DNA of 64,000 nucleotides from Escherichia phage JM10: sequence record PP400777; one strand, given 5' to 3'. Both the position numbers and the translations under genes were made by a program. The notes below the pieces were generated by a model. The model was not told where the DNA came from and made no database searches. It worked only from the letters and a program-made list of their open reading frames with translations. Positions 14,057-29,555 of this stretch are shown here, piece after piece. Position 1 is the stretch's first letter, and each line of letters starts with the position of its first letter.

Positions 14057-14289
14057 TACCGATTGTGTTTTAAATGTTGATAAAGTTCTTCAACTTGTTT
14101 AGGGTCCAAAACAATTAAGTCATTTTCTTGACGAAGATAAATCCATCCCTTATCCCCAGGACCATTTTTACAAAACATCACCACCATATCATCATCTTTA
14201 GCGCTTTCAGGTAAAAGTTCAAGTACACCGTCTTCAGATTTTCCAGTATAATCGTAAAGCATAATATCCTCACATAATCTCGTTAACAT
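14056..14289 (-). CDS. hypothetical small protein
   Basis: 77-aa acidic ORF. Confidence 0.35.
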   Translation of the reverse strand: MLTRLCEDIMLYDYTGKSEDGVLELLPESAKDDDMVVMFCKNGPGDKGWIYLRQENDLIVLDPKQVEELYQHLKHNR

Positions 14290-14449
14290 ACATTTGCAAT
14301 TCGGTGTGGGCGTCAGCCATCTTTTTCATAGCTCTGTTAATGTCGATGTCTCCATCTTCGCAACCATGAGCATTTTCCCAATCAGATACCGCATTAGCGT
14401 ACTCTTCAATCAAAAACATTAACTTAGAAATTTTTTCTTTACGTGACAT
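14270..14449 (-). CDS. hypothetical small protein
   Basis: 59 aa from MSRKEK with GGAGAA RBS. Confidence 0.35.
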   Translation of the reverse strand: MSRKEKISKLMFLIEEYANAVSDWENAHGCEDGDIDINRAMKKMADAHTELQMYVNEIM

Positions 14450-14476: not shown

Positions 14477-14505
14477 ACTATAACACAACCTGAGGAGAAG
14501 TAAAC
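14477..14505 (-). promoter_or_regulatory. T4-type early promoter
   Basis: GTTTACttctcctcaggttgtgtTATAGT. Confidence 0.45.
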
Positions 14506-14516
14506 TGATAGATGCC

Positions 14517-14544
14517 AAAAAGCCCCAACCTTTCGGAAGGGGCT
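14517..14544 (-). terminator. rho-independent terminator hairpin (repeat copy A)
   Basis: minus-strand AGCCCCTTCCGAAAGGTTGGGGCT followed by a T-run; downstream of rI. Confidence 0.55.
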
Positions 14545-14550
14545 AGTAAA

Positions 14551-14853
14551 TTAGATAGATGTAGGCTCTAATTTTATTTTCATGAACTCAGCAAATTGTC
14601 TGGCAGTTTTTATGCCTTGTTCATGACATTCAAATGCATCATCACAGGGGCTATTTTTGTAATGCTTTGCCATATACTTATAGAATTTTTCAGAATTCTC
14701 GACATTTTGAATTTCAAACAAAGTATATACGTTTTTAATCCCTGATTCCATAAAGTTATCAAAATATGGGTCGATATATGCAGTACCAACGATAGGAGTT
14801 GTTGCTGCAAAAAACCACAGCATCGCCATGACAGCTATCGCTCTTAAGGCCAT
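14551..14853 (-). CDS. rI: lysis inhibition regulator RI (antiholin)
   Basis: signal-anchor N-terminus; FMESGI..PC..FEC motifs match my recall of T4 RI. Confidence 0.75.
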   Translation of the reverse strand: MALRAIAVMAMLWFFAATTPIVGTAYIDPYFDNFMESGIKNVYTLFEIQNVENSEKFYKYMAKHYKNSPCDDAFECHEQGIKTARQFAEFMKIKLEPTSI

Positions 14854-14865
14854 ATAGGCCTCCTG

Positions 14866-15078
14866 TTAATTTTGGCCAGTATTTATTTTTCGCCTTTGGA
14901 CGGCCTTAACATCTGTGAGGTATTTTTCCAGCTTGCGCTTGCGTGTATAATCAGCTTTAGAACCAGTTTGACGGATATCCTCGTTTAAATGAGAAATAGA
15001 ATGTCCTAATTCTCTTCGGATTTCATCCAATTGGGTTACAGTAAGATTACGAAGTTGTCTTTCGTTTAATTGCTGCAT
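14866..15078 (-). CDS. hypothetical small protein
   Basis: 70-aa basic ORF between tk and rI. Confidence 0.4.
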
Positions 15079-15105
15079 ATATACCTCTTGGTTAGATATT
15101 AGTAT

Positions 15106-15687
15106 TTATAACAACCCTGTCAAATCATTCCAATGCTTCCGGCATAATGACACGTATCTATCGGTATCACCAATTTCAATTTGACTGCCATCTGTAATTG
15201 GAAGTCCGTCTTCCGTGACTCTAGCTACCATTGTGGCCTTTTTACCGCAATGACAGACACCTTTAAGTTCAACAAGCTTATCGGCAATAGCCATTAATGC
15301 TTGAGAACCTTCAAATAGATTACCTTTAAAATCTGTTCGTAGTCCATATGCCATTACCGGCACATTGTATACGTCAACAATACGACTAAGTTGATACACC
15401 TTTTCAGTAGTTAAGAACTGAGCTTCGTCAACAAATACACAATGAATATCCTTTTGTGCTGCAGCCCATTTATAGAATTCAAAGATATCCATGTCTTTTG
15501 TAATTATATTGGCATCCTGACGAATACCAATACGAGAGACTATTTCACCTTTTGAATCACGAGTATCAATAGCCGGTTTAAGAACTAATACACCCATGCC
15601 ACGTTCTTTATAGTTATGTGCGGCAGTAAGTAATGAAGCAGACTTACCGGCGTTCATAGCGGCATATGTAAAAATTAAACTAGCCAT
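15106..15687 (-). CDS. tk: thymidine kinase
   Basis: 193 aa; P-loop NAGKSASLL; C-terminal Cys pairs. Confidence 0.9.
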   Translation of the reverse strand: MASLIFTYAAMNAGKSASLLTAAHNYKERGMGVLVLKPAIDTRDSKGEIVSRIGIRQDANIITKDMDIFEFYKWAAAQKDIHCVFVDEAQFLTTEKVYQLSRIVDVYNVPVMAYGLRTDFKGNLFEGSQALMAIADKLVELKGVCHCGKKATMVARVTEDGLPITDGSQIEIGDTDRYVSLCRKHWNDLTGLL

Positions 15688-15696
15688 AAGAGTCCC

Positions 15697-15879
15697 TTAT
15701 AGTGAATTCACGTAGTCAATGAGTTCTTGTTCTTTCCTGTCAAATGATTCCATCAATGCGTGATATTCTTCGTCCGTCAAAGGAGCATATTCATCGTACG
15801 CATTGGTGGCTGCTTGTTCATCCAATAGGTCATGGATAAGTTCGAACAGTTTAGCTTTCTCTTCTTTAGTTAATTTCAT
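15697..15879 (-). CDS. hypothetical small acidic protein
   Basis: 60-aa ORF. Confidence 0.35.
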   Translation of the reverse strand: MKLTKEEKAKLFELIHDLLDEQAATNAYDEYAPLTDEEYHALMESFDRKEQELIDYVNSL

Positions 15880-16370
15880 TTAGGTTCCAAATCAACAATC
15901 ACAATTTCTAGTTTAGTGGAATACGTATCTAAAATCTCTTCGATGACATCCCAGTTTCCACCACCAATACCTGCACCAATTCTTGGCATATAAATTACAG
16001 GCTTTGTTATCTTATTCTTTCCGAATTCATTTAATTCTATTATACAATTCATTAAAGCAGAGTACTCAAAATTAGGTCCCGGCTCAAACTGTGTATAAAG
16101 ATTAAAGCAATAAGCTTTATGGGTCTTAAAATATTTTTCATAAACCGAATAAGACCCGAGTTTAGACTCATCTCCGAATTCGGTTTGAAGTTTATCGGCT
16201 TCCAGAATTTTTGGATAAGCCTTTGCTAATTGTCCTGCTACACCAGCGCCCATTGTATGAAAACAATTACACCCATGCGCAATATTATTACCTTTAGAAA
16301 ACAGGGCGACAATATCGCCCTTGATATAGTTTTTAATCACTTGCTGCAAGTCCTCTAGTATAAGAGTCAA
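15876..16370 (-). CDS. macro-domain-like protein (possible ADP-ribose binding/hydrolase)
   Basis: GCNCFHTMGAGVAGQL and IGAGIGGG glycine-rich motifs resemble macro-domain loops. Confidence 0.4.
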   Translation of the reverse strand: MTLILEDLQQVIKNYIKGDIVALFSKGNNIAHGCNCFHTMGAGVAGQLAKAYPKILEADKLQTEFGDESKLGSYSVYEKYFKTHKAYCFNLYTQFEPGPNFEYSALMNCIIELNEFGKNKITKPVIYMPRIGAGIGGGNWDVIEEILDTYSTKLEIVIVDLEPK

Positions 16371-16680
16371 CTAGGCGGTCCACCATAGAATTGCATGCTG
16401 CCTTATCTTTAGGTTCCGCCACCGAGCATTCTAATATTTGCCATTTTTTATAGTATCTTTTAATTAAGGTAGACGCCTTGAACCTACTAGACGCCCCATC
16501 TTTTTCTCCGTCTTTATACGCATATAACAATTTTTGTGAAAAATCTACTTTACACTCTTGACTTTTACCACAATAATCAGACGCCGTTCTGTTTGTATAC
16601 TCCGTTACATCAGTATATGTAGTATTAGCAAGAGCGTTAAATGAAACCAAGCCAACTATTAAAGCCAACATTTTGGTCAT
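16333..16680 (-). CDS. secreted protein
   Basis: N-terminal signal-peptide-like MTKMLALIVGLVSFNALA. Confidence 0.4.
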   Translation of the reverse strand: MTKMLALIVGLVSFNALANTTYTDVTEYTNRTASDYCGKSQECKVDFSQKLLYAYKDGEKDGASSRFKASTLIKRYYKKWQILECSVAEPKDKAACNSMVDRLVDSYTRGLAASD

Positions 16681-17219
16681 TCTTTTATTTCCAGTAGTTT
16701 ATTTGATTTAAGGTAATTAGCCTTTTCTAGGACTTCAGAAGCATATTTACTTCCAGCACTTGTCTTCCATCCTGCATTATATGAGGATATAGCTTTTCTT
16801 ATATCCCCGTTATGTATATTTAACCAATAAGAAAATTCGATATAAGCCCATCTGGCTGAATTAGACCGCTTAGATAGCATTTTCTTAATTTGGGCATCAG
16901 TCATATTATAACCAAGCTGGTTAATTCTTGCCCTCATTGTCGGTAGATAATTTTGGAACATTCCATACGCATGGTGACCTTTCTTATCTTTAAGATTAAT
17001 ACCGGCAGATGATTCCTGCCATAGTATTGCGGCCATTATGTATCCAAGTCCTTTCTTATGCATATTTTCATGCGTTTTAAATTTTCCGTCCTTAGAAAAC
17101 TGTTCCCCAAACTGATAAGCATAATTCAAGTTATCGAGTTGGACATTACTAAAAGTATGCTCGGAGCTATGTGCTGATAATGAAAGAGCAAATAGACCAG
17201 CGAGTAGTGCTTTTCTCAT
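16677..17219 (-). CDS. secreted lytic transglycosylase-like protein
   Basis: signal peptide; WQESS and SYNAGW motifs typical of SLT domains. Confidence 0.5.
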   Translation of the reverse strand: MRKALLAGLFALSLSAHSSEHTFSNVQLDNLNYAYQFGEQFSKDGKFKTHENMHKKGLGYIMAAILWQESSAGINLKDKKGHHAYGMFQNYLPTMRARINQLGYNMTDAQIKKMLSKRSNSARWAYIEFSYWLNIHNGDIRKAISSYNAGWKTSAGSKYASEVLEKANYLKSNKLLEIKE

Positions 17220-17227
17220 GTTTACCT

Positions 17228-17686
17228 CTAGATTTTAATCACTGCTTTAGAAGCTTTTCCTGGTAGTCGTTTATTGTTAATAATAGCCATTCTGCATTGA
17301 AGAGACTTCATTTTGAATGCTGGATTTTCGCGACAAACTGTAAGTCCTAACCAAAGATTTCCATCAGTTATTTCTAAACGGCCTGGGCGATATTCGACAC
17401 CTTCGACAAAATCTTCATCAACATCTGGACGTGCCGGCATTGATAAAAATTCTGCAACTTCTTTAACATGATTTTTTACTTTATGAAATAATTCAAAAAC
17501 GTAATTCTCATCTATTTCTCTCTGGATGGCACGATCTAAGAGATGTTGAGAATACTTGATATGAAAGCCTGGTAGTCCAAGAGACTTTGCAGCATCTTTT
17601 ATACTGGCATTTATTTTGCGGAACTCCGTTTCAAAGATTCGACGGAGTTTATTACGGCGGATAAAAACGTCTGAATTGATAGTCAT
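17228..17686 (-). CDS. regB: RegB site-specific endoribonuclease
   Basis: 152 aa; close match to my recall of T4 RegB. Confidence 0.85.
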   Translation of the reverse strand: MTINSDVFIRRNKLRRIFETEFRKINASIKDAAKSLGLPGFHIKYSQHLLDRAIQREIDENYVFELFHKVKNHVKEVAEFLSMPARPDVDEDFVEGVEYRPGRLEITDGNLWLGLTVCRENPAFKMKSLQCRMAIINNKRLPGKASKAVIKI

Positions 17687-17714
17687 TTTGATTTCTCCTC
17701 TAGTTGACAGGTCT

Positions 17715-17743
17715 ATAGTAACACAACTAGAGGAGAAGTAAAC
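17715..17743 (-). promoter_or_regulatory. T4-type early promoter upstream of regB
   Basis: GTTTACttctcctctagttgtgtTACTAT. Confidence 0.45.
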
Positions 17744-17747
17744 TACT

Positions 17748-17963
17748 TTATTGATAAAATGGAGTTAAAGCCCAAGATTCTTTAGATACTATATTGGCGA
17801 AATGCCTCATCTCTTCGATTTGGCGACGACGCTGGTCAGCATAGTCTTCTTCGCCTTCTTCCTTACAATCTTCAAGGTCTTCTTCAAGATACTTTAAGTA
17901 TTCACTACAAATTTTGTTGACCTTTTCTTGAAAGTCCAATAACCCAGTAATAGTAGAAGCCAT
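17748..17963 (-). CDS. hypothetical small acidic protein (vs.3 position)
   Basis: 71-aa ORF. Confidence 0.4.
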   Translation of the reverse strand: MASTITGLLDFQEKVNKICSEYLKYLEEDLEDCKEEGEEDYADQRRRQIEEMRHFANIVSKESWALTPFYQ

Positions 17964-18239
17964 TAGTATTTTTCCTCAGGTCGAAATACTGCACGACATG
18001 CCCACATGCTGGCTTCTTTTAGATGTTGCTTAGCATACTTAAGAGCCTGCACTGCATCCATATCTTCTTTGGTTTGTTGCTCTGTTTCATTTTCTTTCAA
18101 GATATATGCTTCTTCAATCAGAGCATCAAACAACAATCCAAGACGGACTTCGGCATCTTTAATAGCGTTCACTTTACCGATTTTATCATCGGTATGCGGC
18201 TTGTAGCCTTTGATGTCTTCAATCGACATAAGGAATTTC
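17963..18239 (-). CDS. Acb2-like protein (T4 vs.4 position); candidate cyclic-nucleotide sponge
   Basis: 92 aa from MSIEDIK; position and size match T4 vs.4; assignment from recall only. Confidence 0.4.
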
Positions 18240-18443
18240 CTCATCAGTGGCAAGGTCATATTCGACCAATTGGATAGGCTCATTAATACCATATCCACGT
18301 ACAGTGATATCAGTTGACGGATATTTTCCAGTAATATCACCCGTTCTAAATGCTTCAATGAATGATTGCTCGCCTGAGCAACTAAACCAGGCGGCAAAAC
18401 ATTTTAAAACATCTTCAGACCCTTCTATAATCAATTTAGCCAT
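18219..18443 (-). CDS. hypothetical small protein
   Basis: 74-aa ORF. Confidence 0.4.
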   Translation of the reverse strand: MAKLIIEGSEDVLKCFAAWFSCSGEQSFIEAFRTGDITGKYPSTDITVRGYGINEPIQLVEYDLATDEEIPYVD

Positions 18444-18805
18444 TATAGACTCTCAGTAAAGGTACGAGCGATAACGTCGCGCTGCTGTTCCGGAGTCAGA
18501 GAGTTAAAGCGAACTGCATAACCGGATACACGGATGGTCAGCTGCGGATATTTTTCCGGATGCTTAACTGCATCTTCCAGAGTTTCACGACGCAGAACGT
18601 TAACGTTCAGATGTTGACCACCTTCAATTTTAACTTTAGGTTGATGTTCAATTTCAATTTCACGGGCATGCAAACCGTAGAAAATTTCCGGGTCTACAAT
18701 AGCGTCTTCTTTAAAAGTCTTAGAGACAATAATCCGGGCTTGAGTACCGTCTTCAAAATAAATAGTGCCTTTATGCGCACCTTCAAGAATTTGATATGCT
18801 TTCAT
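18443..18805 (-). CDS. autonomous glycyl-radical cofactor (GrcA/YfiD-like)
   Basis: C-terminal [25 protein letters not shown] is the pyruvate formate-lyase glycyl-radical signature. Confidence 0.75.
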
Positions 18806-18811
18806 ATAACC

Positions 18812-19183
18812 TCAATTAGAAAATAAATTTATCCAAGTTTTTTCTTTAATCAAAAATGGGTCGGAATTAAACGCCATTAAACTTTGAGTGATTAATCCCT
18901 TAAATGGCCCATCAATAAATTCCATTTTGAAATGCGGAATACTAGTCATCAACCGTGCATTAGGAGCAGTACAAAGAACCTGCTGCCCTGCGAACGGACC
19001 TTTAGTCAAACGATATCGTTTAGGTTTAAAATGGTAAATCTCGTAATTTTCTACAAGAGCCCTTTTATTGCATACTGGGCTGTTATAACAATATTCAAAA
19101 ACTTCAATAGTGGTCATCATTGCATTCCAATCACAAAAAATTGAGGACGAGCAATACCGCCGATGCAATATTTGCTTTTGCAA
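18812..19183 (-). CDS. hypothetical protein
   Basis: 123-aa ORF. Confidence 0.4.
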   Translation of the reverse strand: MQKQILHRRYCSSSIFCDWNAMMTTIEVFEYCYNSPVCNKRALVENYEIYHFKPKRYRLTKGPFAGQQVLCTAPNARLMTSIPHFKMEFIDGPFKGLITQSLMAFNSDPFLIKEKTWINLFSN

Positions 19184-19656
19184 CAGTGTTGGACTGTTTT
19201 AATATGGACATTGTAAATCTTATCCATATCAGGAGCTTTAATAGGCTCGTCAATTATGTACAGAATACGAGAAAGCGTTAATCCACGGAATTTAGAACCT
19301 TCATTGCCAATAAAACTACGAACAGAATCAGTAAATAAACGGAATCGAATATCATCGCTAGAATAACGAGAAAATTCTTTTTTAATGTTGCCAGCAGAAA
19401 TTTTAGCATAAGCTGAAGTATTAGAAAGAACAATAACAGTTCCGCCATCATACAACCAATTAGCAGCGAAGTTAGTCACAGCAATTGATTTACCTGATTG
19501 TCTGCCGCCGTCTAAACGAAGTGTACAGTACTGCTTGAGTACATCTTCAAATGGTGGGACATAACCGTTCTTACAAATTTCTTCTACTCTAGCATCAGAA
19601 TGGTGTGTAAAAGCATTCATCAGGGATAGATAAGGTCCAGTTAAAAATGTTCTCAT
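19117..19656 (-). CDS. hypothetical protein
   Basis: 179-aa ORF; start uncertain because of overlap with 18812..19183. Confidence 0.4.
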   Translation of the reverse strand: MRTFLTGPYLSLMNAFTHHSDARVEEICKNGYVPPFEDVLKQYCTLRLDGGRQSGKSIAVTNFAANWLYDGGTVIVLSNTSAYAKISAGNIKKEFSRYSSDDIRFRLFTDSVRSFIGNEGSKFRGLTLSRILYIIDEPIKAPDMDKIYNVHIKTVQHCCKSKYCIGGIARPQFFVIGMQ

Positions 19657-19769
19657 TTAGTTTCTCTTTTAGGTTGGGCCATTCCGTGGCGCATGAATTG
19701 TCCATTTCTGTATTTACCCCTCCAAGTAATTATGAATATACTATCACAATTCTAGGAGAAAGTAAACTG

Positions 19770-20072
19770 TTATTTACCTTTAATTACTTTAGCTGCTTCG
19801 ATAGCCGCTTGCTGAAGGTCATCCATAGACATACCGAATTTAGAAGCAAAGTTATCAATTTTCTTTTCGACAGCATTCAAAGGCTTTGCCTGTTTACCTT
19901 CATTAGCGCCAGGAAGAGCGAGAATACGCTCTTTGTCAATATAAAGGCTTACAAGTTTCTTACGGTCTTTATCGGACAAATCATGAAATGAATGGGCCTT
20001 TTTATTTATAGCGGCTTCTAATTTACCTGCACTCACTCGCGCTTCAGTAATAAATTCTTGATAGGTTTTCAT
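19770..20072 (-). CDS. ipII: internal protein (IpII-like) with capsid-targeting sequence
   Basis: N-terminal MKTYQEFITEA is the T4 capsid-targeting sequence (CTS); 100 aa. Confidence 0.6.
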   Translation of the reverse strand: MKTYQEFITEARVSAGKLEAAINKKAHSFHDLSDKDRKKLVSLYIDKERILALPGANEGKQAKPLNAVEKKIDNFASKFGMSMDDLQQAAIEAAKVIKGK

Positions 20073-20100
20073 GTGTTTCCTTGTTTGTTTTGATAGAGTA

Positions 20101-20130
20101 ATTATACCATATTAATACTTAAGCGTAAAC
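20101..20130 (-). promoter_or_regulatory. T4-type early promoter
   Basis: GTTTAC + 18 nt + TGgTATAAT. Confidence 0.5.
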
Positions 20131-20210
20131 CGTTTAAGCTTTACCGCCAGAAATAATTCCGAAGTTGTTAAAATCATATCCAATATCGTCAACATCTACT
20201 TTAGGACTTG

Positions 20211-20396
20211 CTACAACATAAGCAATTTCACTACGTTTTGCATAGGTGTTTTGATTTCTTTACCATCGCCACCTAAGAAAGAATACCCATTACGTTTTAA
20301 TGAGCCAAAGTCTTCCGCATCACCAATGAAAGCTTTAACTTTAAATTTAGGACCTTTGGCATCTGCTTCAACGATAAATTCTTGATACATTTTCAT
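20211..20396 (-). pseudogene. CTS-containing small internal-protein gene, apparently frameshifted
   Basis: MKMYQEFIVEA start; frame ends after 61 aa and continues in the +1 frame for about 28 more codons. Confidence 0.35.
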
Positions 20397-20563
20397 TTTT
20401 CCTTAGTAAATTGATTTACCAAAGTATTTGTACCAAGTCGGGCGTTGAGCAATTTTTTATCTAAGCGTGCTTGACTTATCGCAATGGACGCTTCGGACGG
20501 GTCATAATTTCCTCCAAGTAGTTGATGAATGTATAGTATCAAAACCCTTGGAGGAAGTAAACA

Positions 20564-20845
20564 CTATTTTTCTGAAGCGCCTGAAATATATTTTTCAAGA
20601 CGTTGTTTCATCAGCGAGCCGTTCTTAGCAATTTCTTCCGGTTTATCGCACATACGCAACAAGGCTTCAAGCTTAACGATATCACTGGTGCGCTCAAATT
20701 TGCGAGTATCTATCTTACTAGCAAGTTCAGAAATACGTGCTAATAGACTTTCAGCTTCAACCAAAGCTGCACCTAGCTTAGTTGCAAATGTGTCAGTAGC
20801 TTCGTTAAGAATAGATTCTGATAAAAATTCACTATATGTTTTCAT
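20564..20845 (-). CDS. internal protein (IpIII-position) with capsid-targeting sequence
   Basis: [13 protein letters not shown]; directly upstream of e as ipIII is in T4. Confidence 0.55.
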
Positions 20846-21330
20846 ATATACGCTTTCCAAGTTCCTGTTTTAAATGTTGAGATTACGCGTTTCGCGCGAT
20901 TAGGTGTCTGACGATACCATTTAGATTGGGCTAGATTTACTGCCGCCTCGTCCCAACGTTTCTGTTGAAGCATACGAAGAGAATTAGTAAAACCGGCGAC
21001 GCCTGCTACACCCATTTGGAAGACCATATTGACCAATGCACATCGACGAACCGCATCTAAAGAATCATATACCGGTTTAAGTTTAGCATTACCCAAGATT
21101 CCGCGAACGGCTTTATCAACGTCTTCATTAAATAGCTTTTCAGCCTCATCAAGGGTAATTGTACCGTTGCATTTACGACCGATAATTCTGTCAAGTTCAG
21201 CTTTAGCTACGGCTAAAGACGGGTTCTTTGTTACTAAATGGCCTATGCCAATCGTCCAAAAGCCTTCAGTGTCTTTATATAAAGTCAGTCTAAGACCTTC
21301 GTCATTACGAAGCATTTCAAATATATTCAT
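20842..21330 (-). CDS. e: lysozyme (endolysin)
   Basis: [17 protein letters not shown]; strong match to my recall of T4 lysozyme. Confidence 0.9.
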
Positions 21331-21364
21331 AATACCTCCCACGTTTATAGGAGGTATTTATTAC

Positions 21365-21823
21365 TTATAGGAGGGTAGTGAGCACCTTATATAATGATTT
21401 GCCCATTACATATTCCCATTGAGAAGGTTTAATTAAAGCGAATGCATCAAATTCAGGAATCTGTCGTCCGTCTGGGAATGTATGATAGGAATTACAAACA
21501 CTGTTTCTGAATTGCTCGTGCTCTACAGGGATGGTATATTGGAACAGATGAATATTCTTATTGTCTGAGTAATGATGTTCACCTAGGTCTTTCAGGAAGG
21601 CAGGGTCATATTGTGTAAACCCAGTTTCTTCTTCGCATTCACGAATAGCGGCTTCAATAGGAGATTCGCCAGGTTCGACACGGCCTTTAGGAATATCCCA
21701 CCGATGGGCTAATGCACCTTTAGGACGAGAACCAGTTACACGCCCCATGAATAATTCTTTATCTTTGGTAAGGAAAATAATACCGGCTGATAGTTCTTTC
21801 ACTTTATTTTTCTTACTCATCAT
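21365..21823 (-). CDS. nudE: Nudix hydrolase
   Basis: Nudix box GRVEPGESPIEAAIRECEEETG. Confidence 0.8.
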   Translation of the reverse strand: MMSKKNKVKELSAGIIFLTKDKELFMGRVTGSRPKGALAHRWDIPKGRVEPGESPIEAAIRECEEETGFTQYDPAFLKDLGEHHYSDNKNIHLFQYTIPVEHEQFRNSVCNSYHTFPDGRQIPEFDAFALIKPSQWEYVMGKSLYKVLTTLL

Positions 21824-22064
21824 CTCGGTCCAATGATTTGGCCATTAATTCGGACATAAATTCTTCAAGGCGCGTTTCTTTAGATGGACTTTCACTATTA
21901 GAGATCGCAAGTTTGTAATCTGCAATAGGACAGAACATATCAAGGTCCATATTAAGGTCGTCTTTGATTTTTTCTTCTGACACATCTTTATCGTATGTGT
22001 ACAGATAACTATCACATGATTCTGATTTAATGTAAATTGCTATACTCATCTCAAATTCCTGCAT
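21813..22064 (-). CDS. hypothetical small protein
   Basis: 83-aa ORF. Confidence 0.35.
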   Translation of the reverse strand: MQEFEMSIAIYIKSESCDSYLYTYDKDVSEEKIKDDLNMDLDMFCPIADYKLAISNSESPSKETRLEEFMSELMAKSLDRDDE

Positions 22065-22537
22065 TCGGTAATAAAACGTTCAACTTCATTATTCTTGGCT
22101 TTTATCTTGTCTTTATGTTCTTGTAAACTACTTTTAATAAGATTAATAATGATGCCTACAGTACCTCCACCAATAATACCACCAATAATACTTACAATAG
22201 TAGATGATAATAAGATAGCGATAATATCTAGTACAGCAAAGGCACTTACTTTAGTACTAAAAAACCATACCGACGGTACAAATATAATCCATCCTGTTAT
22301 CCATTGGCACTTATTGAAAAACTTTTCAAGCTCAGCTTGGGTTGTTCGTATTACTTCATCGATAGGTTGATATCCATTAATGTATCTGTTCACGATAATA
22401 CCTGCTGGTTTGTCGATTTTAAATGCTTGACAATGGTGTTTCACTAAGTAGGATGGACATCCTGTCCAATCTACTGAATAGTATGAAATACCTTCGTCGC
22501 CATCGCCCATGTTTGACCAGTGAATTTTCTGTATCAT
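22046..22537 (-). CDS. membrane protein
   Basis: 163 aa; hydrophobic helices in the middle. Confidence 0.4.
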   Translation of the reverse strand: MIQKIHWSNMGDGDEGISYYSVDWTGCPSYLVKHHCQAFKIDKPAGIIVNRYINGYQPIDEVIRTTQAELEKFFNKCQWITGWIIFVPSVWFFSTKVSAFAVLDIIAILLSSTIVSIIGGIIGGGTVGIIINLIKSSLQEHKDKIKAKNNEVERFITECRNLR

Positions 22538-23223
22538 TACCAGCCTTCCATAGGGAATTCCAGATAAACTTGGGCATTGACACGAATTTCATTGGTAATC
22601 TTTTTAACTCGGTCTGTACTACGAGATACACGTCCGAACCAACGCCATCCGTTACTAATTGCACGAGAACCAGTGTGCCATGTTTGCCAATCAAACTGAA
22701 GAAGAGTACGATCTGGAGCTTCCCATTTCTCTAGTTCACCTTTTTCAATTTTTTCGAGGACTTCTTTGTGCCACTGACGATAGATAAGTTCGCCATCAGG
22801 AATCTGACTGAACTCTGCAGTTCCTGTTGCAAAATGAGTAGGACACACATCAGCGTTAACAAGACCAAGAATATGTTCAGACAAATAGCGAGGATTGTCA
22901 TAGTCAGGTTGTCCTGCAGTAATAAAGTGTTGACCAACTGGAATATCAGGGCGAGGAACATCATCATGGTGATATCCAGGAATAGCAGGGTACCAGCCAG
23001 GCATCAGCATGTGGACTCGTGAATCAAATACTACATCCGAGTCTTTCCAATCGTCAGGAAGATTTTGGATAAAGCTACGAGTAATTGGGCCGCCATTATC
23101 AAAAGCAAAATTTAAATCGCAGTTAAAGAACATAGGCTCGTTTTTAATCTGGTCGTTTTTAATCGCATGAGCAAAACCACCTACTGCACGAGCTTGACTA
23201 TTAAACACTTTAGAACTATTCAT
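22537..23223 (-). CDS. hypothetical protein
   Basis: 228-aa ORF. Confidence 0.45.
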   Translation of the reverse strand: MNSSKVFNSQARAVGGFAHAIKNDQIKNEPMFFNCDLNFAFDNGGPITRSFIQNLPDDWKDSDVVFDSRVHMLMPGWYPAIPGYHHDDVPRPDIPVGQHFITAGQPDYDNPRYLSEHILGLVNADVCPTHFATGTAEFSQIPDGELIYRQWHKEVLEKIEKGELEKWEAPDRTLLQFDWQTWHTGSRAISNGWRWFGRVSRSTDRVKKITNEIRVNAQVYLEFPMEGW

Positions 23224-23224
23224 A

Positions 23225-23530
23225 TTATTTTCCTCGGCATTCTTTAATGAAATTTTCTAGATTGGTAGATTCAATAGCTTTTTTACGAGCTTCTGCGTGT
23301 TCTTCTTCGGACAATTTACATTTATAATTGACCCAGACATTATGGTCAAAACTAGTCGTGGCATATAATAACAAAGCTCCGACGAATAATAAAAACGGTG
23401 ATAAGAATACAAAACCAGGAACACCATCCATACTGTAAGCCTTTTGTAATACTGCAACAGAAAGAGCTACGTAAAAAGGTGTTGCAAATATTGTAAAAAG
23501 ACCGATTCGATTGGTTTCGCCTAATTTCAT
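23225..23530 (-). CDS. membrane protein
   Basis: 101 aa; two hydrophobic helices. Confidence 0.4.
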   Translation of the reverse strand: MKLGETNRIGLFTIFATPFYVALSVAVLQKAYSMDGVPGFVFLSPFLLFVGALLLYATTSFDHNVWVNYKCKLSEEEHAEARKKAIESTNLENFIKECRGK

Positions 23531-23558
23531 AATATTCTCCTCATGTTTTAATAGGACT

Positions 23559-23588
23559 ACTATAACATAGTCCTATAATTGTGTAAAC
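23559..23588 (-). promoter_or_regulatory. T4-type early promoter in a PeSL-like cassette
   Basis: GTTTAC + 18 nt + TGtTATAGT with palindromic TAGGACTA core. Confidence 0.5.
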
Positions 23589-23600
23589 AGTTTTGCGAAA

Positions 23601-24557
23601 TTATTTGAAAGGTTTTACAATATTGAAATTTTGTTTGAAACGTTTGACGTAATCATCATGTCCTAAGCTTTGGTACATACTTACTACTTTGCTGTAGTTT
23701 TCCCAGGCATACTCACGGAACCAACCGGAGGTTATGCTTGTACAGACTTTTTCCAATGCCATCATGAAACTGGCTTCAGGGTTAATTTTAAAGTCATTAG
23801 GAATCTGAGAACGTTCTAATGCTAGTACACATGATTCTTCATATACACCGGCCAATTTGACCATTTCTGGTAACGATTCGAACTTCTCGCGTGAGGTCAT
23901 TACTTCAGAACCATCTTTCATGTAAAATGTATAAGCCGGACGGTCTGTTAGTGCAATGGCTTCGTGAATAGTATCGTGGTCATATGTATAGATGTCATCT
24001 TTAAAGAACGCACTTTTAGAAGTGTCAAGAACCGGGTGAGCATAGTTCAAGGTTTCTTTCTGGCGTTTCAGCATAATTTCGGTAAGTTCATCGTTCAGTG
24101 TAACACCTTTACCACGAAGATACTGAATATGGTTCATAGTCTTTAAAAAGAATGGATTATTTTTCTTGAAACGATGAGACATCTTAATTGCAAGACATAT
24201 CTCAGGAGTTGCCCAGTAAAACCCGTTCAAACGGTCTTTAGTCAAATTTTTCTTGGCGTATTTTAAAAGGTCATAAGAAGACGTGAAATCTTCAGGAGTG
24301 AGTTCACCGACTAATTCACGGACATTAGTGATTGCCGGAACAATATATGCTTCAAAATGAGTTTCGCGTCCATTATGGAAGCATTTGAAAACTTGGACAT
24401 CAGGGTTATCTTGGTGAACATATACACCCATCATTTGATTTTTGAATGCATTCCAAGAACATTGGTCCGCAATAAAGTCCCAATCACTATTTTTAATAGC
24501 GCTAGAATCAATAAGACCGTGATAGTGAAGTGCACGAGAACCAATAACCAACATCAT
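23601..24557 (-). CDS. hypothetical protein
   Basis: 318-aa ORF. Confidence 0.45.
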   Translation of the reverse strand: MMLVIGSRALHYHGLIDSSAIKNSDWDFIADQCSWNAFKNQMMGVYVHQDNPDVQVFKCFHNGRETHFEAYIVPAITNVRELVGELTPEDFTSSYDLLKYAKKNLTKDRLNGFYWATPEICLAIKMSHRFKKNNPFFLKTMNHIQYLRGKGVTLNDELTEIMLKRQKETLNYAHPVLDTSKSAFFKDDIYTYDHDTIHEAIALTDRPAYTFYMKDGSEVMTSREKFESLPEMVKLAGVYEESCVLALERSQIPNDFKINPEASFMMALEKVCTSITSGWFREYAWENYSKVVSMYQSLGHDDYVKRFKQNFNIVKPFK

Positions 24558-24625
24558 AATATTTTCCTCGGATTAATTCATTAACTTAAATTTCACGACA
24601 TGCGATATCATATTCATCCCAGAGG

Positions 24626-24838
24626 TCATCGTGTGAAGCCTCTACCAATGGAACGATTGTACCCGTTTATGTCTTCATTATAAGGGCAAATTGTACAGTG
24701 CGCATCTTCGAATCGGATGCCTTTATGTTCAGATTTTTTATAACGCATATCGAATATCTTTGCAAACTTTTCACGAGTAATGGTTTTAGCAACCACTTTG
24801 GTTCCGATACTTTCGTAATAAATCATTGTGGACTCCAT
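24626..24838 (-). CDS. hypothetical small protein
   Basis: 70-aa ORF. Confidence 0.35.
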   Translation of the reverse strand: MESTMIYYESIGTKVVAKTITREKFAKIFDMRYKKSEHKGIRFEDAHCTICPYNEDINGYNRSIGRGFTR

Positions 24839-24854
24839 TTAATTTGATAGAACT

Positions 24855-24884
24855 ACTATAACATAGCCCTATCTTGTTGTAAAC
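24855..24884 (-). promoter_or_regulatory. T4-type early promoter in a PeSL-like cassette
   Basis: GTTTAC + 18 nt + TATAGT-type -10. Confidence 0.45.
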
Positions 24885-24888
24885 TGTT

Positions 24889-25086
24889 TTAGCAAGAATA
24901 ACTAGATGATACCCAGCCTTGAACAGTAATACTATTATTTGATAACGAGATTGCGTCCTGGAGATTCAGACCTGCGTTATCTTCAATCCATAATATAACT
25001 TCTTCGCGTTCTTCTGTTGCAATTTGGAACAGGTTTTCCAGAGCAGCTACTGCCGTACGTACAGCGCAATCTAATTCACGAGACAT
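24889..25086 (-). CDS. small protein, paralog 1 of the C-terminal GWVxSSxxC family
   Basis: ends ..QGWVSSSYSC. Confidence 0.45.
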   Translation of the reverse strand: MSRELDCAVRTAVAALENLFQIATEEREEVILWIEDNAGLNLQDAISLSNNSITVQGWVSSSYSC

Positions 25087-25095
25087 ATGATTTCC

Positions 25096-25368
25096 TTAAC
25101 AAGTGTGAGAAGACGCGACCCAACCACCAGTTTCGAGGCTAAGGTTGTAGTCGTATTGGTAAACGTCAGCCCATTCAGCATAGCCGTTTTTTGTACAACG
25201 TTCAAGATCGGCTTTAAGATGTCCGGGTGAATGATAGGTTCCACCCATACCATAAGCTGGGTACAAGTCGAATGTTGTGTTTTGTTTATCAGCAATTTCT
25301 TTGGCAGCCTCAATAGCTGCATAGATTTTTGCTACAGCTTCAGCCAGTTCGGTTTGTTCTTTAGACAT
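25096..25368 (-). CDS. small protein, paralog 2 of the C-terminal GWVxSSxxC family
   Basis: ends ..GGWVASSHTC. Confidence 0.5.
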   Translation of the reverse strand: MSKEQTELAEAVAKIYAAIEAAKEIADKQNTTFDLYPAYGMGGTYHSPGHLKADLERCTKNGYAEWADVYQYDYNLSLETGGWVASSHTC

Positions 25369-25377
25369 AATGATTCC

Positions 25378-25683
25378 TTAGCACAACGCAGAAGACGAAA
25401 CCCAAGCACCTTCAGTAATAACGTAACCATTACCTTCACGCTTAACATCGCCACCATTATTTTCAATTTCATTTTTCATCCACTGGGATACGATTTCACC
25501 CTTAGGATAATAAGTACGACCGCTACCATAATCACCTACAGAAAATGATACGGCATATTGGTCTGCGATCTTTGTTGCTTCTTCTTCGATACGTTCAGCT
25601 TGATTCAGAAGTTTATAAATTGCATCTGAAGCGGATTTGGCATCATTAAACTCTGGTACTTTAATTTCAATAATCTTACTCAT
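25378..25683 (-). CDS. small protein, paralog 3 of the C-terminal GWVxSSxxC family
   Basis: ends ..GAWVSSSALC; shares MSK start and internal motifs with paralog 2. Confidence 0.5.
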   Translation of the reverse strand: MSKIIEIKVPEFNDAKSASDAIYKLLNQAERIEEEATKIADQYAVSFSVGDYGSGRTYYPKGEIVSQWMKNEIENNGGDVKREGNGYVITEGAWVSSSALC

Positions 25684-26039
25684 TTTCTACATTCCTTAAT
25701 AAAGTTTTCGATTGTTTCATTTTCACGTCTAGCTAGGAGTTCATTATAACTAATCATTTGAGAAGCGTAAACCTTTTTATTTTTCTTGTTATGGTTTATA
25801 AAATCGTAGTAAAAATAGACTACAGTACAAAATGATGCGATGGATGCAAAGGCTTGGGTATACCGTAAGTCCTGCCATTGGTCTGTGAATCCACCAGTGT
25901 TCCCTATAAATCCTAACACAACGCCGTCAATAAGAAATCCAACTAATCCAAAGGCAAATCCCATGCCAATACTCATAATAAAAATTAGAATGTTCTCACC
26001 AAGAGAAGGCCATACGGTTAAGAGTTGAGGCTTTTGCAT
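25680..26039 (-). CDS. membrane protein
   Basis: 119 aa; hydrophobic helices. Confidence 0.4.
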   Translation of the reverse strand: MQKPQLLTVWPSLGENILIFIMSIGMGFAFGLVGFLIDGVVLGFIGNTGGFTDQWQDLRYTQAFASIASFCTVVYFYYDFINHNKKNKKVYASQMISYNELLARRENETIENFIKECRK

Positions 26040-26443
26040 CTTATTTCCTTAACGAATTCCATAGCTTCTTCATATTCATACTTTTTAACAGCTTCATCAT
26101 ACTGAGCTTGGGCTTTTGCGCACTGAACTTTCCATTCTCTTAATCGGGCTCTGTGATGACGACCTTGGTGCCAATATCCTACCCAATTAATAGGCATTAA
26201 TAAAAATGGTACAATAAACGACCCGGCTATAATAAGTAAAAACACTGCATCAGACGATATAACTTCACTAGAATCTAAAACAGCTCCTATAATCATAAAG
26301 ATTAAAAATGCTAAAGCTAAAATAGGGCCAAATAGTACTTCATTTGGAATTAATTTACGCTTGTATTCATACGCCAAGGGTTTAATTGGCATGTACAGGG
26401 TTGGCTTTGACATATTCTCTACATTCCATAATAAATTGCTCAA
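26018..26443 (-). CDS. membrane protein
   Basis: 141 aa; hydrophobic helices. Confidence 0.4.
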   Translation of the reverse strand: MSNLLWNVENMSKPTLYMPIKPLAYEYKRKLIPNEVLFGPILALAFLIFMIIGAVLDSSEVISSDAVFLLIIAGSFIVPFLLMPINWVGYWHQGRHHRARLREWKVQCAKAQAQYDEAVKKYEYEEAMEFVKEIRCKSLNS

Positions 26444-26999
26444 GGATTAAATTGTTAGTGAAATTAGGACTAACAACCATGGTTTCATAAAGCGCATCAA
26501 TAGCACTTAAAGCATCAACTCTTTTAAGCAAAGGCTTGCCTTCATACATAGTTTCAGAATCGATGATTAACGTAAAGTAATATTTTTTATTATCGACTAG
26601 AACTTCTGTATCGATATAAAACATATTAGACCTCAGAAGCTTATCTCTAAAACCATAATAATCTTCAGAGCGTTCGCTGATATATTCCAATTCAGTGTTT
26701 AAACAACAAACAGACCATGTAGGAGCAACGAAATCAGTGAATCTAATATCATGGTCTGCAACTAGTTTAGCAATAGCTCCGATATCATGAATCATAATAC
26801 CTGGGGCTAATAAAGATTTTCGGTGATTTGCATATTCAGTTGTCTCATAAGAAGACGACCAGTACCATTTACGTCCAGTTGCAACATATCGTAATGAATC
26901 AACTAAAGACGTAGGTGGATTTACCTTATCTCGGAACTCTTCGAACATTGAGTCAATATCATTATTTTGGTTTCGCATGTTAACTCCTTTATTATCCAA
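26382..26999 (-). CDS. hypothetical protein
   Basis: 205-aa ORF. Confidence 0.45.
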   Translation of the reverse strand: MDNKGVNMRNQNNDIDSMFEEFRDKVNPPTSLVDSLRYVATGRKWYWSSSYETTEYANHRKSLLAPGIMIHDIGAIAKLVADHDIRFTDFVAPTWSVCCLNTELEYISERSEDYYGFRDKLLRSNMFYIDTEVLVDNKKYYFTLIIDSETMYEGKPLLKRVDALSAIDALYETMVVSPNFTNNLILEQFIMECREYVKANPVHAN

Positions 27000-27027
27000 A
27001 AGGAGGACCGGAGTCCTCCGTATTATT

Positions 27028-27621
27028 TTATTTCAAAGAGTTAATATATTCTTGTACATCAGCAGAAGTGGTTTCTACACCAGCTGGAGTGCCATTGAAC
27101 GTTTCAACACGAGTCAGAGTGTCTTCGATATCAACCTTAGTCAGTGCAGCGATTTCAATTACATCATCAGCCGTAGAGATACCAAGGGCATTGGCTGCTC
27201 GAGTTTCACGAATGTATTCGAGTTTGATTGCCAGGTTCTGACGAGCATCGTCAAGTTCAACCACCTTACGAGCAATTTCAATTCGCATAGCGGCATACCC
27301 ATCAGCTTTTGTATTAAGTTGTTCGGCAGTTCTACGATACAGAAGACCAAGCTTAGCATGCATGGTAACATCTTGTCCTTCAGCCAGGAGCTTACGAATT
27401 TCACGTTCCTTAGAAGCGGCTTGCTTGTTCTTTTCATTAACAAGTTCGCGAATACGTTTTTCTTCATTAATAGATTTAACAGAAGCCGTTTTTAGTTCTT
27501 TGATTTGGGTAATCAACTTATCTGCAGCTGCGTTATACTGTTCTTCGACAGTCAGATTTTTAGCCATAGCAGTACCAAGTTTAGTGCGGATGAATTCGAC
27601 AAGTTTCTTCAGTGTGTTCAT
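27028..27621 (-). CDS. coiled-coil protein
   Basis: about 197 aa from MNTLKK; long helical K/E/R-rich region. Confidence 0.4.
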
Positions 27622-27691
27622 ATTATTACCTTTCAATTGGTGGTTTATTATCCAACGAGAGCATTATACTCTGCTCTCAAGAGTTTGTAAA

Positions 27692-27919
27692 TTATTTTTT
27701 AATCAAATTGACATAAAACTTGGCGTCTTCGGGGTGCATGCCTTCGCAGTATTCTTCAACCATGAACTTCTTAACAGCTTCATAAGGACCACTCAGATTA
27801 AGCTCAGTTGTCCAGAACTTGGAATCTTGGACTGAATCGATACGAACTTCAGGGTGTCGGTTGCGAATAACTTCTTCGGTGTATTCATAATCAACGACAT
27901 CAATACTAACTTTAGCCAT
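27692..27919 (-). CDS. hypothetical small protein
   Basis: 75-aa ORF. Confidence 0.4.
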   Translation of the reverse strand: MAKVSIDVVDYEYTEEVIRNRHPEVRIDSVQDSKFWTTELNLSGPYEAVKKFMVEEYCEGMHPEDAKFYVNLIKK

Positions 27920-27947
27920 TTTGTGTTCCTCGTATTTTGATAGGACT

Positions 27948-27977
27948 ACTATAACATAAACTTACTTAGATGTAAAT
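27948..27977 (-). promoter_or_regulatory. early promoter variant in a PeSL-like cassette (ATTTAC -35)
   Basis: ATTTAC + 18 nt + TATAGT. Confidence 0.4.
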
Positions 27978-28130
27978 TATTTCAACGTCACCTTTAGCTG
28001 CTTTATAACCTTCGGCCCAAGATACAACAGAGTTTTTATCTGAGGATTCAAATTCAGGCATTGGACTTTCACCAATATTCACACAGTATGTTTCTTCATT
28101 TTCATCGAACCAAATAATTAAAGTAGTCAT
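27966..28130 (-). CDS. possible small protein (54 aa)
   Basis: ATG with AGGAG RBS; below the ORF-track cutoff. Confidence 0.25.
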   Translation of the reverse strand: MTTLIIWFDENEETYCVNIGESPMPEFESSDKNSVVSWAEGYKAAKGDVEIIYI

Positions 28131-28198
28131 TTTGTTTACTCCTCTGTAGTTGATAAGTCTATAGTATCACCGTCCTTGGTGCTTGTACATCATTATTT

Positions 28199-28504
28199 TT
28201 AATTTTTCCAACTTAACAACTTGTAGTGTCCTTCATTCATACGTGGTTTATCCCAAGAAATACTAATATATGATTCACCGTCAATAGAAGTCGCCGGGTT
28301 TTTCTCTACCGTAAGACCTTCACTTTCCAGCCATTCGATAGTATTTGCGCATAAATCAGAAGAACACCTCATCGGGAACCGGCAAGATTTTTCACCTTTA
28401 GCTGCAGTGTTATACATCTTTTCTAAAATACGCTTTTGCACGTTTTTAAAAATAGTTTCAGCAGATTCTTCAGATTTTTTATTCAGTTCAGTGTAAAGAC
28501 TCAT
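28199..28504 (-). CDS. hypothetical protein
   Basis: 101-aa ORF downstream of an early promoter. Confidence 0.4.
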   Translation of the reverse strand: MSLYTELNKKSEESAETIFKNVQKRILEKMYNTAAKGEKSCRFPMRCSSDLCANTIEWLESEGLTVEKNPATSIDGESYISISWDKPRMNEGHYKLLSWKN

Positions 28505-28532
28505 AATATTTTCCTCTGTGGTTGATAAGTCT

Positions 28533-28561
28533 ATAATATCATGTCCTTAGAAGAAGTAAAC
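28533..28561 (-). promoter_or_regulatory. T4-type early promoter
   Basis: GTTTACttcttctaaggacatgaTATTAT. Confidence 0.5.
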
Positions 28562-28595
28562 AACTTTATGAAATATTTTTATGCCCTAGATACCA

Positions 28596-28621
28596 AAAAG
28601 CCCCAACCATAAGGAAGGGGC
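28596..28621 (-). terminator. rho-independent terminator hairpin (repeat copy B, variant loop)
   Basis: GCCCCTTCCTTATGGTTGGGGC + T-run on minus strand. Confidence 0.5.
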
Positions 28622-28627
28622 ATTCTA

Positions 28628-29092
28628 TTATTTAATTTGTTTAGCAGACCAGATACGGTCTTTAATAAGTTTTTGGATATCTTCAACATACTCAAGGCTA
28701 TGAGCGTGAGGATTATCTTTGAAGCTATGTGCTCGTGCCAGTTTCTGGCCTTCTGTTTTGATTACTAAAAGCTCTTTAAGAATTGCTTCATACTTAGAAA
28801 TAATTCCTTTGGCGATATTTTTTTCTTGAGCTGCTTTAGGGTCTGCTTTTGGCGCAGGTGCTTTACCTGTAGCTTTCTGGAACAATTCACCTGATGCAGC
28901 TAGGCTTTTAAAAACTCGGCTAACAGTATTAGCATTAGTAAAACCTTCGGCTTTAAAATCTCTAATAAAACGGAAACGTTCTTCATCAGAGGCGTCTTTG
29001 TAAGAATATTTACCTGCTTGAATTGCTGCAATCGCAGCGGCTTTTACATCTGAACTAGATTGTTCAGTCAAAAATTCAGCGTATGATTTCAT
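28628..29092 (-). CDS. CTS-tagged candidate internal protein
   Basis: MKSYAEFLTE resembles the T4 capsid-targeting sequence; 154 aa. Confidence 0.5.
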   Translation of the reverse strand: MKSYAEFLTEQSSSDVKAAAIAAIQAGKYSYKDASDEERFRFIRDFKAEGFTNANTVSRVFKSLAASGELFQKATGKAPAPKADPKAAQEKNIAKGIISKYEAILKELLVIKTEGQKLARAHSFKDNPHAHSLEYVEDIQKLIKDRIWSAKQIK

Positions 29093-29137
29093 GTTGCTTT
29101 TCCTAAGTTAATTAACTTATCTATTTATTATTATGCC

Positions 29138-29164
29138 AAAAAGCCCCAACCTTTCGGAAGGGGC
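29138..29164 (-). terminator. rho-independent terminator hairpin (repeat copy C) ending the tRNA unit
   Basis: AGCCCCTTCCGAAAGGTTGGGGCT + TTTTT on minus strand. Confidence 0.55.
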
Positions 29165-29207
29165 TATATACCTTGTCGGGGTTCCACCTGCTAAGGCAAG
29201 TGTTTGT

Positions 29208-29299
29208 ACGAAACGCCGGGATTCGAACCCGGTTATTAAGCAGTTGACGCTACTCAATATTTTTAAAAGGCCATATCTCGACCATATCCGAACGTTCCG
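29208..29299 (-). ncRNA. tRNA-like RNA (92 nt) with canonical T-arm and acceptor stem but non-canonical core
   Basis: acceptor CGGAACG/CGTTTCG (one G-U); T-arm CCGGG-TTCGAAT-CCCGG; D and anticodon arms not resolvable by eye. Confidence 0.35.
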
Positions 29300-29472
29300 T
29301 CAAAAACGCTACTCGGCTTACGGCAAAGATATTTCCTCGAATCGATAATTCGGTGCGCCGTTTCTGCTGTGATGTAAGGGGATATTAACAAATCATAAAG
29401 ATTTATTAAGACCAGTCCTTACTCAGGGAACATCAGTCCGACGACTTACCGGTAGCGACCCGGCTTCTTATT

Positions 29473-29549: not shown

Positions 29550-29555
29550 AATATA

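Follow-up and report, generated by a model that had tools for sequence, protein, structure and literature searches.

T4-like phages carry terminator/promoter cassettes, the promoter-early stem-loops (PeSLs), that take part in modular shuffling (Arbiol et al. 2010, PMC2839356; Comeau et al. 2014, PMC4122927). RB49, for example, has ORFan192 between two PeSLs at a place where phi1 has one, and excised circles have been shown experimentally (PMC2839356). The mechanism was extended to the T4/PST and KVP40/nt-1 pairs, pointing to the internal-protein (IP) loci (PMC4122927). The PeSL versions described in the 2010 and 2014 papers have early and middle promoters only (PMC2839356, PMC4122927). Here we describe a short hairpin that occurs three times in the 64,000-nucleotide stretch of Escherichia phage JM10 that we analysed (sequence record PP400777; hereafter, the window). 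In our view, the three copies are probably one Rho-independent terminator that closes three units and that, as repeated homology, provides joints for PeSL-type cassette shuffling.

A repeat finder identified a 34-nt family with the following members:

14512 to 14545, minus strand: hairpin copy 1, with the stem-loop at 14522–14543 and the U-run at 14517–14521.
28590 to 28623, minus strand: hairpin copy 2, with the loop UUAU, the stem-loop at 28600–28621 and the U-run at 28595–28599.
29133 to 29166, minus strand: hairpin copy 3, with the stem-loop at 29143–29164 and the U-run at 29138–29142.

Copies 1 and 3 are 100% identical (34/34 nt), an identity that takes in the unpaired flanks and an unusual U.U mismatch. 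Copy 2 is 82% identical; two of its flank bases are different, as are three of the four bases in its loop, where the RNA has UUAU instead of GAAA. When the surroundings of the copies were aligned, their likeness ended a few bases beyond the 34-nt unit, with no duplication outside it. An earlier note on this DNA had placed an element at these three sites, and it is indeed present at each: the 14-mer AAAAAGCCCCAACC has three matches with ≤2 mismatches, compared to 0.50 expected, and 0 of 100 shuffles reach three, while the hairpin pattern GCCCCTTCCNNNNGGTTGGGGC has three matches with ≤3 mismatches, compared to 0.00 expected. The unit is longer than the note had it, because TA before the stem and UUUUUGG(C/U)AU after it belong to the 34 nt. 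The note was also mistaken in having every copy start with ATGCC, as copy 2 starts with ATACC. Its description of one loop as a “compensated” variant does not apply, since three of the four bases differ in a loop that is unpaired.

The minus-strand RNA of each copy reads UA-GCCCC-UU-CC-(GAAA or UUAU)-GG-UU-GGGGC-UUUUU-GG, which gives a 5-bp G/C base, a tandem U.U internal loop, a 2-bp CC/GG clamp, a tetraloop, and then U5. The earlier note correctly recognized a minus-strand GC stem, small loop, and T-run at all three sites but did not remark on the tandem U.U mismatch (GCCCC-UU-CC / GG-UU-GGGGC) that is common to the three stems. Folding also bore out the stable hairpin that it expected at each copy: in a 47-nt context, the minimum free energies are −16.0, −16.8, and −17.7 kcal/mol (z-scores of −2.7, −2.6, and −2.4), with the expected hairpin predicted in each case, and the hairpins alone give −13.7 to −13.9 kcal/mol. 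U5 comes straight after GGGGC in 3/3 copies and in 19/19 distinct homologs; the tract is short and is followed by GG. Only on the minus strand does the hairpin precede a U-run, which gives the element a direction, the one in which all neighbouring genes are also read. A custom RNAfold scan of the 64-kb window yielded 12 candidates with a hairpin and a U-run, among which these three alone have a sequence in common. A simple terminator scan of the window picked up none of the three copies, owing to their internal U.U loop.

The window comes from a Mosigvirus, a T-even phage of the RB69/PhAPEC2 type, and shows 96–97% identity over 16 kb to Escherichia phages of that type. From tk past e and the tRNA cluster to ipI, the genes stand in the same order as on the T4 map, and all are on the minus strand. 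Each hairpin lies in sense orientation on that strand, close behind a gene. Copy 1 is 7 nt past the stop codon of rI, copy 2 is 6 nt past the stop codon of an open reading frame (ORF) that we call ORF154, and copy 3 is 42 nt past the homolog of the stable RNA rnaC, where it closes the tRNA/rnaD/rnaC unit. The genes that end at the hairpins are as follows:

14551 to 14853, minus strand: rI, lysis inhibition regulator, ended by copy 1 (PHROG 1246, lysis inhibition, E 3e-30; annotated as rI in relatives).
28628 to 29092, minus strand: ORF154, the gene of the cassette that copies 3 and 2 enclose, with the N-terminus MKSYAEFLTE.
29207 to 29345, minus strand: homolog of the stable RNA rnaC, 98.6% identical to T4 rnaC.
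29352 to 29471, minus strand: rnaD homolog, 86.8% identical to T4 rnaD.
29473 to 29629, minus strand: tRNA-Arg(UCU) and a tRNA with a CAU anticodon (Ile in the annotation of relatives), upstream in the rnaD/rnaC unit.

Homologs of the hairpin are already annotated in related phages. In the PhAPEC2 record the counterparts of copies 2 and 3 are labelled terminators, the Lutter record has a terminator, an 8-nt promoter, a coding sequence, and a terminator at the same place, and T4 record L13089 labels the homolog of copy 3 “stem_loop, putative.” Together with the predicted fold, the U5 tract, and the position just past the ends of genes or of a stable RNA, these annotations support the earlier note's proposal of an intrinsic terminator, and RNA polymerase would stop at all three hairpins. 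A search of Rfam returned no family matching the hairpin, rnaC, or rnaD.

Comparisons with other genomes point to the hairpins as boundaries of homology. A query made of the single hairpin of the genome G2285, with its rnaC side and its downstream side, matched 702 phage records. An even sample of 60 rows was taken from these, and in 46 of them the match to the rnaC side ends within ~10 nt of the U-run, and the downstream sequence is therefore not shared. Five loci from IMG/VR have the rnaC flank in common and carry downstream flanks of four unrelated kinds. In G2285 itself, a single hairpin stands in place of the hairpin-ORF154-hairpin of the window, so that the two differ by exactly one 543-bp unit that runs from hairpin to hairpin. 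The hairpin of G2285 matches copy 3 in the left flank and copy 2 in the loop and the right flank. Additionally, the single T4 hairpin aligns to both of the hairpins that flank the ORF154 homolog in the relatives L217 and L218, with ~35 nt of overlap. Such an overlap, seen when single-hairpin genomes are aligned to both flanking copies, is a signature of repeat-mediated deletion or insertion.

The site of copy 1 behaves in the same manner. At this site (site 1), LF82-33 has the order rI-hairpin-TATAAATA-ORF185-hairpin-early promoter, compared to rI-hairpin-early promoter in the window. A member of the ORF185 family is also an indel between L014 and L043, where it lies between two different stems that are alike only in GGGC-UUUUUUAUA. 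Cassette arrays of 0, 1, or 2 occur among different phages, with two cassettes in tandem in PhAPEC2, L214, L220, and L221. ORF185 from site 1 of LF82-33 has 75% protein identity and 72–73% DNA identity to the ORFs in the rnaC slot of L014, L216, and L219, showing that one gene family occupies both hairpin-marked loci in different phages. As with PeSLs, the copies lie in hyperplastic regions, beside indels and replacements between close relatives. The earlier note spoke of cassette-style spread. The hairpin-ended indels and the gene family found at two loci uphold the cassette part of that idea, but the hairpin is not an autonomous spreading element. What spreads is the gene cassettes, which are exchanged at hairpin copies.

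Three stem variants are found among the genomes. The first has GA or AG, is fully paired and comes with T4-type flanks; another has UU, the tandem mismatch; and the last combines UU with GGCCC/GGGCC, in which a C-G pair of the basal stem has become G-C by compensatory change. Copies inside one genome usually carry the same variant, so that they group by genome and not by locus; the pairs listed here flank the cassette:

L217, L220 and L221: GA/GA stems on both copies.
The window, AlbertHofmann, PhAPEC2 and LF82-33: UU/UU stems on both copies.
L216 and L219: GGCCC stem on both copies.
L214, L215 and L218: mixed stem variants within the genome.

The loops tell a related story. At site 1, GAAA and UUAU, which differ by three bases, are both found in phages with 97–98% identical flanks, and the loop at site 2 is UUAU, UUAC, or GAAA, depending on the phage. 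Loop alternatives amid near-identical flanks require exchange between copies rather than independent point mutation. The lineage-specific stem variants common to the copies of one genome indicate concerted evolution. Recombination between copies would keep them alike and let them act as joints of small cassettes.

The stem is nonetheless kept throughout this variation. Across 19 distinct copies, 84.7% of cells are paired, compared to 31–68% with slid partners; one pair is altered on both sides and several G.U substitutions occur, with the stem maintained. In 13 of these copies, the two U.U positions lack pairing. The 5′ arm is variable, with a fully Watson-Crick AA 5′ arm in none of the T-even copies examined; the 3′ arm GGUUGGGGC and the U-run hardly change.

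These observations suggest how the element may work. As terminators, the hairpins would insulate three units: one ending with rI, the tRNA-rnaD-rnaC unit, and the single-gene unit of ORF154. At the DNA level, ~30 nt of near-identical sequence in unrelated surroundings would serve as a homology patch for recombination. Recombination of two direct copies would delete the gene between them and leave one chimeric copy, and the mosaic hairpin of G2285 looks like such a product. The reverse event, or an exchange with another phage in a mixed infection, would insert or replace a cassette; the exchange partner may be a copy on the other phage or on an excised circle. General homologous recombination, rather than a site-specific process, probably makes the joints.

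Each copy also marks the start of the next unit, as an early promoter comes after two of the copies and a late-like box after the other. TATAAATA is the consensus box of T4 late promoters. The elements that follow the hairpins are listed below:

14477 to 14505, minus strand: early-type promoter GTTTAC-N17-TATAGT, ~10 nt after the U-run of copy 1, in promoter repeat family D5.
14270 to 14449, minus strand: 59-aa ORF (DUF7438) with a ribosome-binding site, behind the copy 1 promoter.
28533 to 28560, minus strand: early-type promoter TTTACT-16-TATTAT, after copy 2 and ~35 nt of A/T-rich sequence, in families D3–D5.
28199 to 28504, minus strand: 101-aa ORF behind the copy 2 promoter.
29122 to 29129, minus strand: AATAAATA, which agrees with the T4 late promoter TATAAATA at 7/8 positions, after copy 3 and followed by a ribosome-binding site and ORF154.

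Both early promoters are members of near-identical early-promoter families in the window. The PeSL layout, in which a stem-loop is followed by an early sigma-70-like promoter, a Shine-Dalgarno sequence, and a start codon, is seen at copies 1 and 2 and not at copy 3. At the position homologous to the late-like box, L216–L221, L076, and Lutter have TATAAATA. The stretch from the U-run to the box (29122–29135) differs by a trinucleotide repeat in the window, L070, L214, and L217, reading CATAATAAATAG, CATAATAATAAATAG, or CATAATAATAATAAATAG; T4-type relatives have TATAAATAG there. In the Mosigvirus versions, the box is therefore AATAAATA and not the canonical TATAAATA.

A few features of the neighbourhood are recorded here in their own right. 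Between 11364 and 31373, families D1–D5 comprise up to eight copies of an early-promoter module of ~60 nt (GTTTAC...TATAGT, a leader, and a start codon); these modules are spread over hyperplastic regions and are the promoter halves of PeSL-type elements. Upstream of copy 3, at 29165–29180, the window reads ...CCCGACAAGG-TATA where the L002, L003, and L004 homologs read ...CCCGACAAGGTTGCCGCAAGGC(T/A)TA. The distance from rnaC to the hairpin is ~12 nt shorter in the window than in these homologs, and the missing part lies between two CAAGG direct repeats, as in a slippage deletion. ARAGORN found only two tRNA genes, those at 29473–29629, compared to eight in T4, and the homing-endonuclease gene segB is absent between them. 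Another strong hairpin, GGAGGAC-UCCG-GUCCUCC followed by UUUUGG (−13 kcal/mol), lies at 27002–27019 after an e.6-like gene; it is kept in G2285 and AlbertHofmann, and its sequence is unrelated to the three copies.

The genes carried between hairpins offer a hint of what is exchanged. Proteins identical to the ORF154 product occur in phages a20 and SF. The product is annotated as “hypothetical protein” in all sources and has no match in Pfam. ORF154 and its homologs start with the leaders MKSYAEFLTE, MKTYNEFLTE, or MKSYAQFLNE; a second cassette gene, ORF187 (187 aa), starts with MKTYAEFLTE, and the replacement gene of L076 starts with MYTVNEFLAE. The leader of T4 IPII and IPIII is MKTYQEFIAE, and ORF154 shares its (L/I)-x-E end. 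Internal proteins are highly polymorphic and alike only in their capsid-targeting sequence (PMC3012670). The IP-like leaders make the ORF154-type cassette genes candidates for internal head proteins that are packaged and injected, which is consistent with a late promoter.

Other ORFs in the window, at 19770–20072, 20211–20396, and 20564–20845 and one starting at 31287 (all on the minus strand), have starts of the form MK(T/M)Y(Q/S)EF(I/L)xE and belong to DNA repeat family D6. A family of predicted membrane proteins of 184–185 aa (phrog_2143) is represented in LF82-33 (L294, 918–1475) and also in L014, L216, and L219; in some phages its place is behind the rI hairpin and in others the rnaC slot.

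We also put forward, as a tentative proposal about which our doubts are somewhat stronger than our confidence, that the hairpin and U-run, often 0–3 nt from TATAAATA, are the late-gene counterpart of a PeSL. They would form an integron-like slot for cassettes that are exchanged among T-even phages and between at least two loci, the 3′ ends of rI and rnaC; the cassettes would encode candidate anti-defence IPs, targeted to the capsid and injected, or be small late genes of other kinds. A pattern of hairpin arm, U-run, and ATAAATA was found at only eight IMG/VR loci, too few for statistics.

The hairpin family as a whole is widespread among phages, with 1,294 places in 748 phage records and one to three places per sampled record. 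The exact U.U stem occurs at 83 IMG/VR loci in 33 unrelated flank contexts and is more common than two versions with Watson-Crick A-U pairs, found at 2 and 11 loci. In a generic NN/NN scan (at least 120 loci), U.U/U.U made up ~3% of the matches listed, a share similar to those of several mismatch-bearing and G/C-paired variants, and we do not claim the tandem U.U as an exceptional motif. In 596 Gb of bacterial and archaeal genomes from GTDB (185,579 species genomes) there were 72 matches, with none in the Enterobacteriaceae. The hairpin was therefore not borrowed from the host, and an origin as a host palindrome resembling repetitive extragenic palindromes or bacterial interspersed mosaic elements (REP/BIME) is ruled out. 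The U.U stem, with loops UUUC, UUUU, UUAC, and UCGC, is also found at another locus in T4-like contigs of 158–180 kb (plus one of 148 kb), in L006, L012–L019, L027, L030, L066, L067, L074, L080, L081, L086, L087, and others. This locus, between convergent genes of which one ends in ...EEDF*, is absent from the window.

Several observations weigh against a terminator that doubles as a cassette joint. The tract has only five U residues and the stem has a 2x2 mismatch, giving −16 kcal/mol compared to −21.6 kcal/mol for the T4 version; with a short U-run and a weaker, mismatched stem, termination may be partial. In the literature searched we found no 3′-end mapping or termination assay for this hairpin. 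Covariation is thin, consisting of a single both-sided change that is probably one event. Copy 3 departs from the canonical PeSL in having no early promoter after it. Identity between the cassette homologs at the two sites is only ~72–75%, implying that movement between sites was not recent. Finally, some cassette ends, those of L014/L043 among them, have unrelated terminator stems that are alike only in the GGGC-U-run flank, and the specific stem is therefore not required for joints.

The short U-run and mismatched stem would also suit hairpins that act mainly in the protection or processing of RNA 3′ ends, as exonuclease barriers or RNase sites that mature rnaC and mRNA ends, and not as polymerase stops. 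GNRA-capped hairpins are very stable, and trimming must happen at copy 3, since it lies 42 nt beyond the mature end of rnaC. However, a U-run directly follows every copy and every homolog examined, and it is required for termination and not for exonuclease blocking. The next unit also has its own promoter. A role in RNA stability does not exclude termination, but alone it leaves the invariant U-run unexplained, and we consider it quite unlikely as the main function. A second alternative accepts the terminators and denies them any part in recombination: they would be ordinary, vertically inherited elements, alike by descent or convergence, and the breakpoints would merely be intergenic. Terminators based on GCCCC/GGGGC are common, the U.U stem itself is found in those 33 unrelated contexts, and other stems stand at some cassette ends. 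Against this, copies 1 and 3 are identical in all 34 positions, including the unpaired flanks and the U.U mismatch, single-hairpin genomes align to both copies with ~35 nt of overlap, and the copies group by genome instead of by locus. We regard this explanation as very unlikely.

The imperfect inverted repeats around single-gene cassettes recall integron attC sites, and homing endonucleases abound in T-even genomes (T4 has mobD and segB), so that the hairpin might instead be the recognition site of a dedicated mobility system: an attC-like site, a miniature inverted-repeat transposable element (MITE), or the target of a homing endonuclease. No integrase, transposase, or endonuclease gene accompanies the cassettes, however, and there is no target-site duplication beyond the repeat itself, for which reasons we rejected all three forms of the idea. 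A MITE or other transposable element is further at odds with the lack of duplication outside the unit and with the placement of every copy at the end of a transcription unit. The window has no segB between its tRNAs, some junctions have unrelated stems alike only in the U-run flank, and PeSL recombination was shown experimentally to proceed without a dedicated system (PMC2839356). A mobility system of this kind is the least credible of the explanations considered, and we favour a repeated terminator that supplies homology for cassette exchange.

This reading leaves the current understanding of terminators and of T4 genome plasticity unchanged. What is modestly new is the GCCCC hairpin family as a repeated homology and its frequent fusion to a late promoter, along with the IP-like cassettes in the slot after rnaC and the presence of one cassette family at both hairpin sites. 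The locus offers a sequence-level example, from the RB69/PhAPEC2 group, of how small accessory genes are swapped among T-even phages, with a terminator sequence of ~30 nt as portable homology at the cassette ends. Injected internal proteins are known to counter host restriction, and candidates for this class are among the cassettes. New anti-defence genes may therefore profitably be sought in the hairpin slots, which are also natural insertion points for engineering.

Among known systems, the cassettes of integrons share single, promoter-poor genes bounded by imperfect palindromes in short tandem arrays. The phage locus is not a member of that family, as it has no integrase, its palindrome is a transcription terminator, and exchange occurs most likely by general homologous recombination. 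Another parallel is found in the IP loci of T-even phages, which are polymorphic according to Repoila et al. (1994; cited in PMC3012670 and PMC4122927). In both cases, different genes with only a capsid-targeting leader in common fill the same slot in different phages. The slot described here differs in lying downstream of rnaC and not at the classical ipI or ipII-ipIII loci.

The copies resemble the tetraloop terminators of T4 in their G/C stem and U-run, and copies 1 and 3 also in their C(GAAA)G cap, whereas the UUAU loop of copy 2 is of a non-GNRA type; relatives have UUAC or AAAA. Tuerk et al. reportedly described such tetraloop-capped hairpins, of the C(UUCG)G and GNRA types, in T4 intercistronic regions in 1988. 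The T4 stem-loop after rnaC (L13089; AF158101, 70835–70856) occupies the same position as copy 3 and is its ortholog. The two are alike in the 3′ arm GGUUGGGGC-UUUUUGG and the GAAA loop. They differ in the 5′ arm, which is GCCCCGACC in T4 and makes a fully paired 9-bp stem through G.U and A-U pairs (−21.6 kcal/mol), compared to UU in the window (−16 to −18 kcal/mol). Copy number differs as well: T4 has one in the 20-kb stretch from tk to gene 3, and sampled T4-type records have one place, compared to three in the window.

The closest relatives of these elements are the PeSLs. Three differences separate them in structure: the stem GCCCC-UU-CC...GG-UU-GGGGC is neither of the T4/PST type (AGNA-loop-TCNT) nor that of RB49, the repeated homology is the terminator itself and not the promoter part, and copy 3 and many homologous cassettes lead into a late promoter (TATAAATA) instead of an early or middle one. 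PeSL recombination yields deletions and circular cassettes, whereas the genome comparisons made here show deletion and insertion products. There are also likenesses. At copies 1 and 2, a terminator stem-loop stands just upstream of an early sigma-70-type promoter, a Shine-Dalgarno sequence, and an ATG; several similar copies per genome lie in hyperplastic regions; and the elements form the boundaries of single-ORF indels that distinguish close relatives. We conclude that these hairpins add one more case to a known class, annotated terminators that serve as PeSL-type cassette joints.

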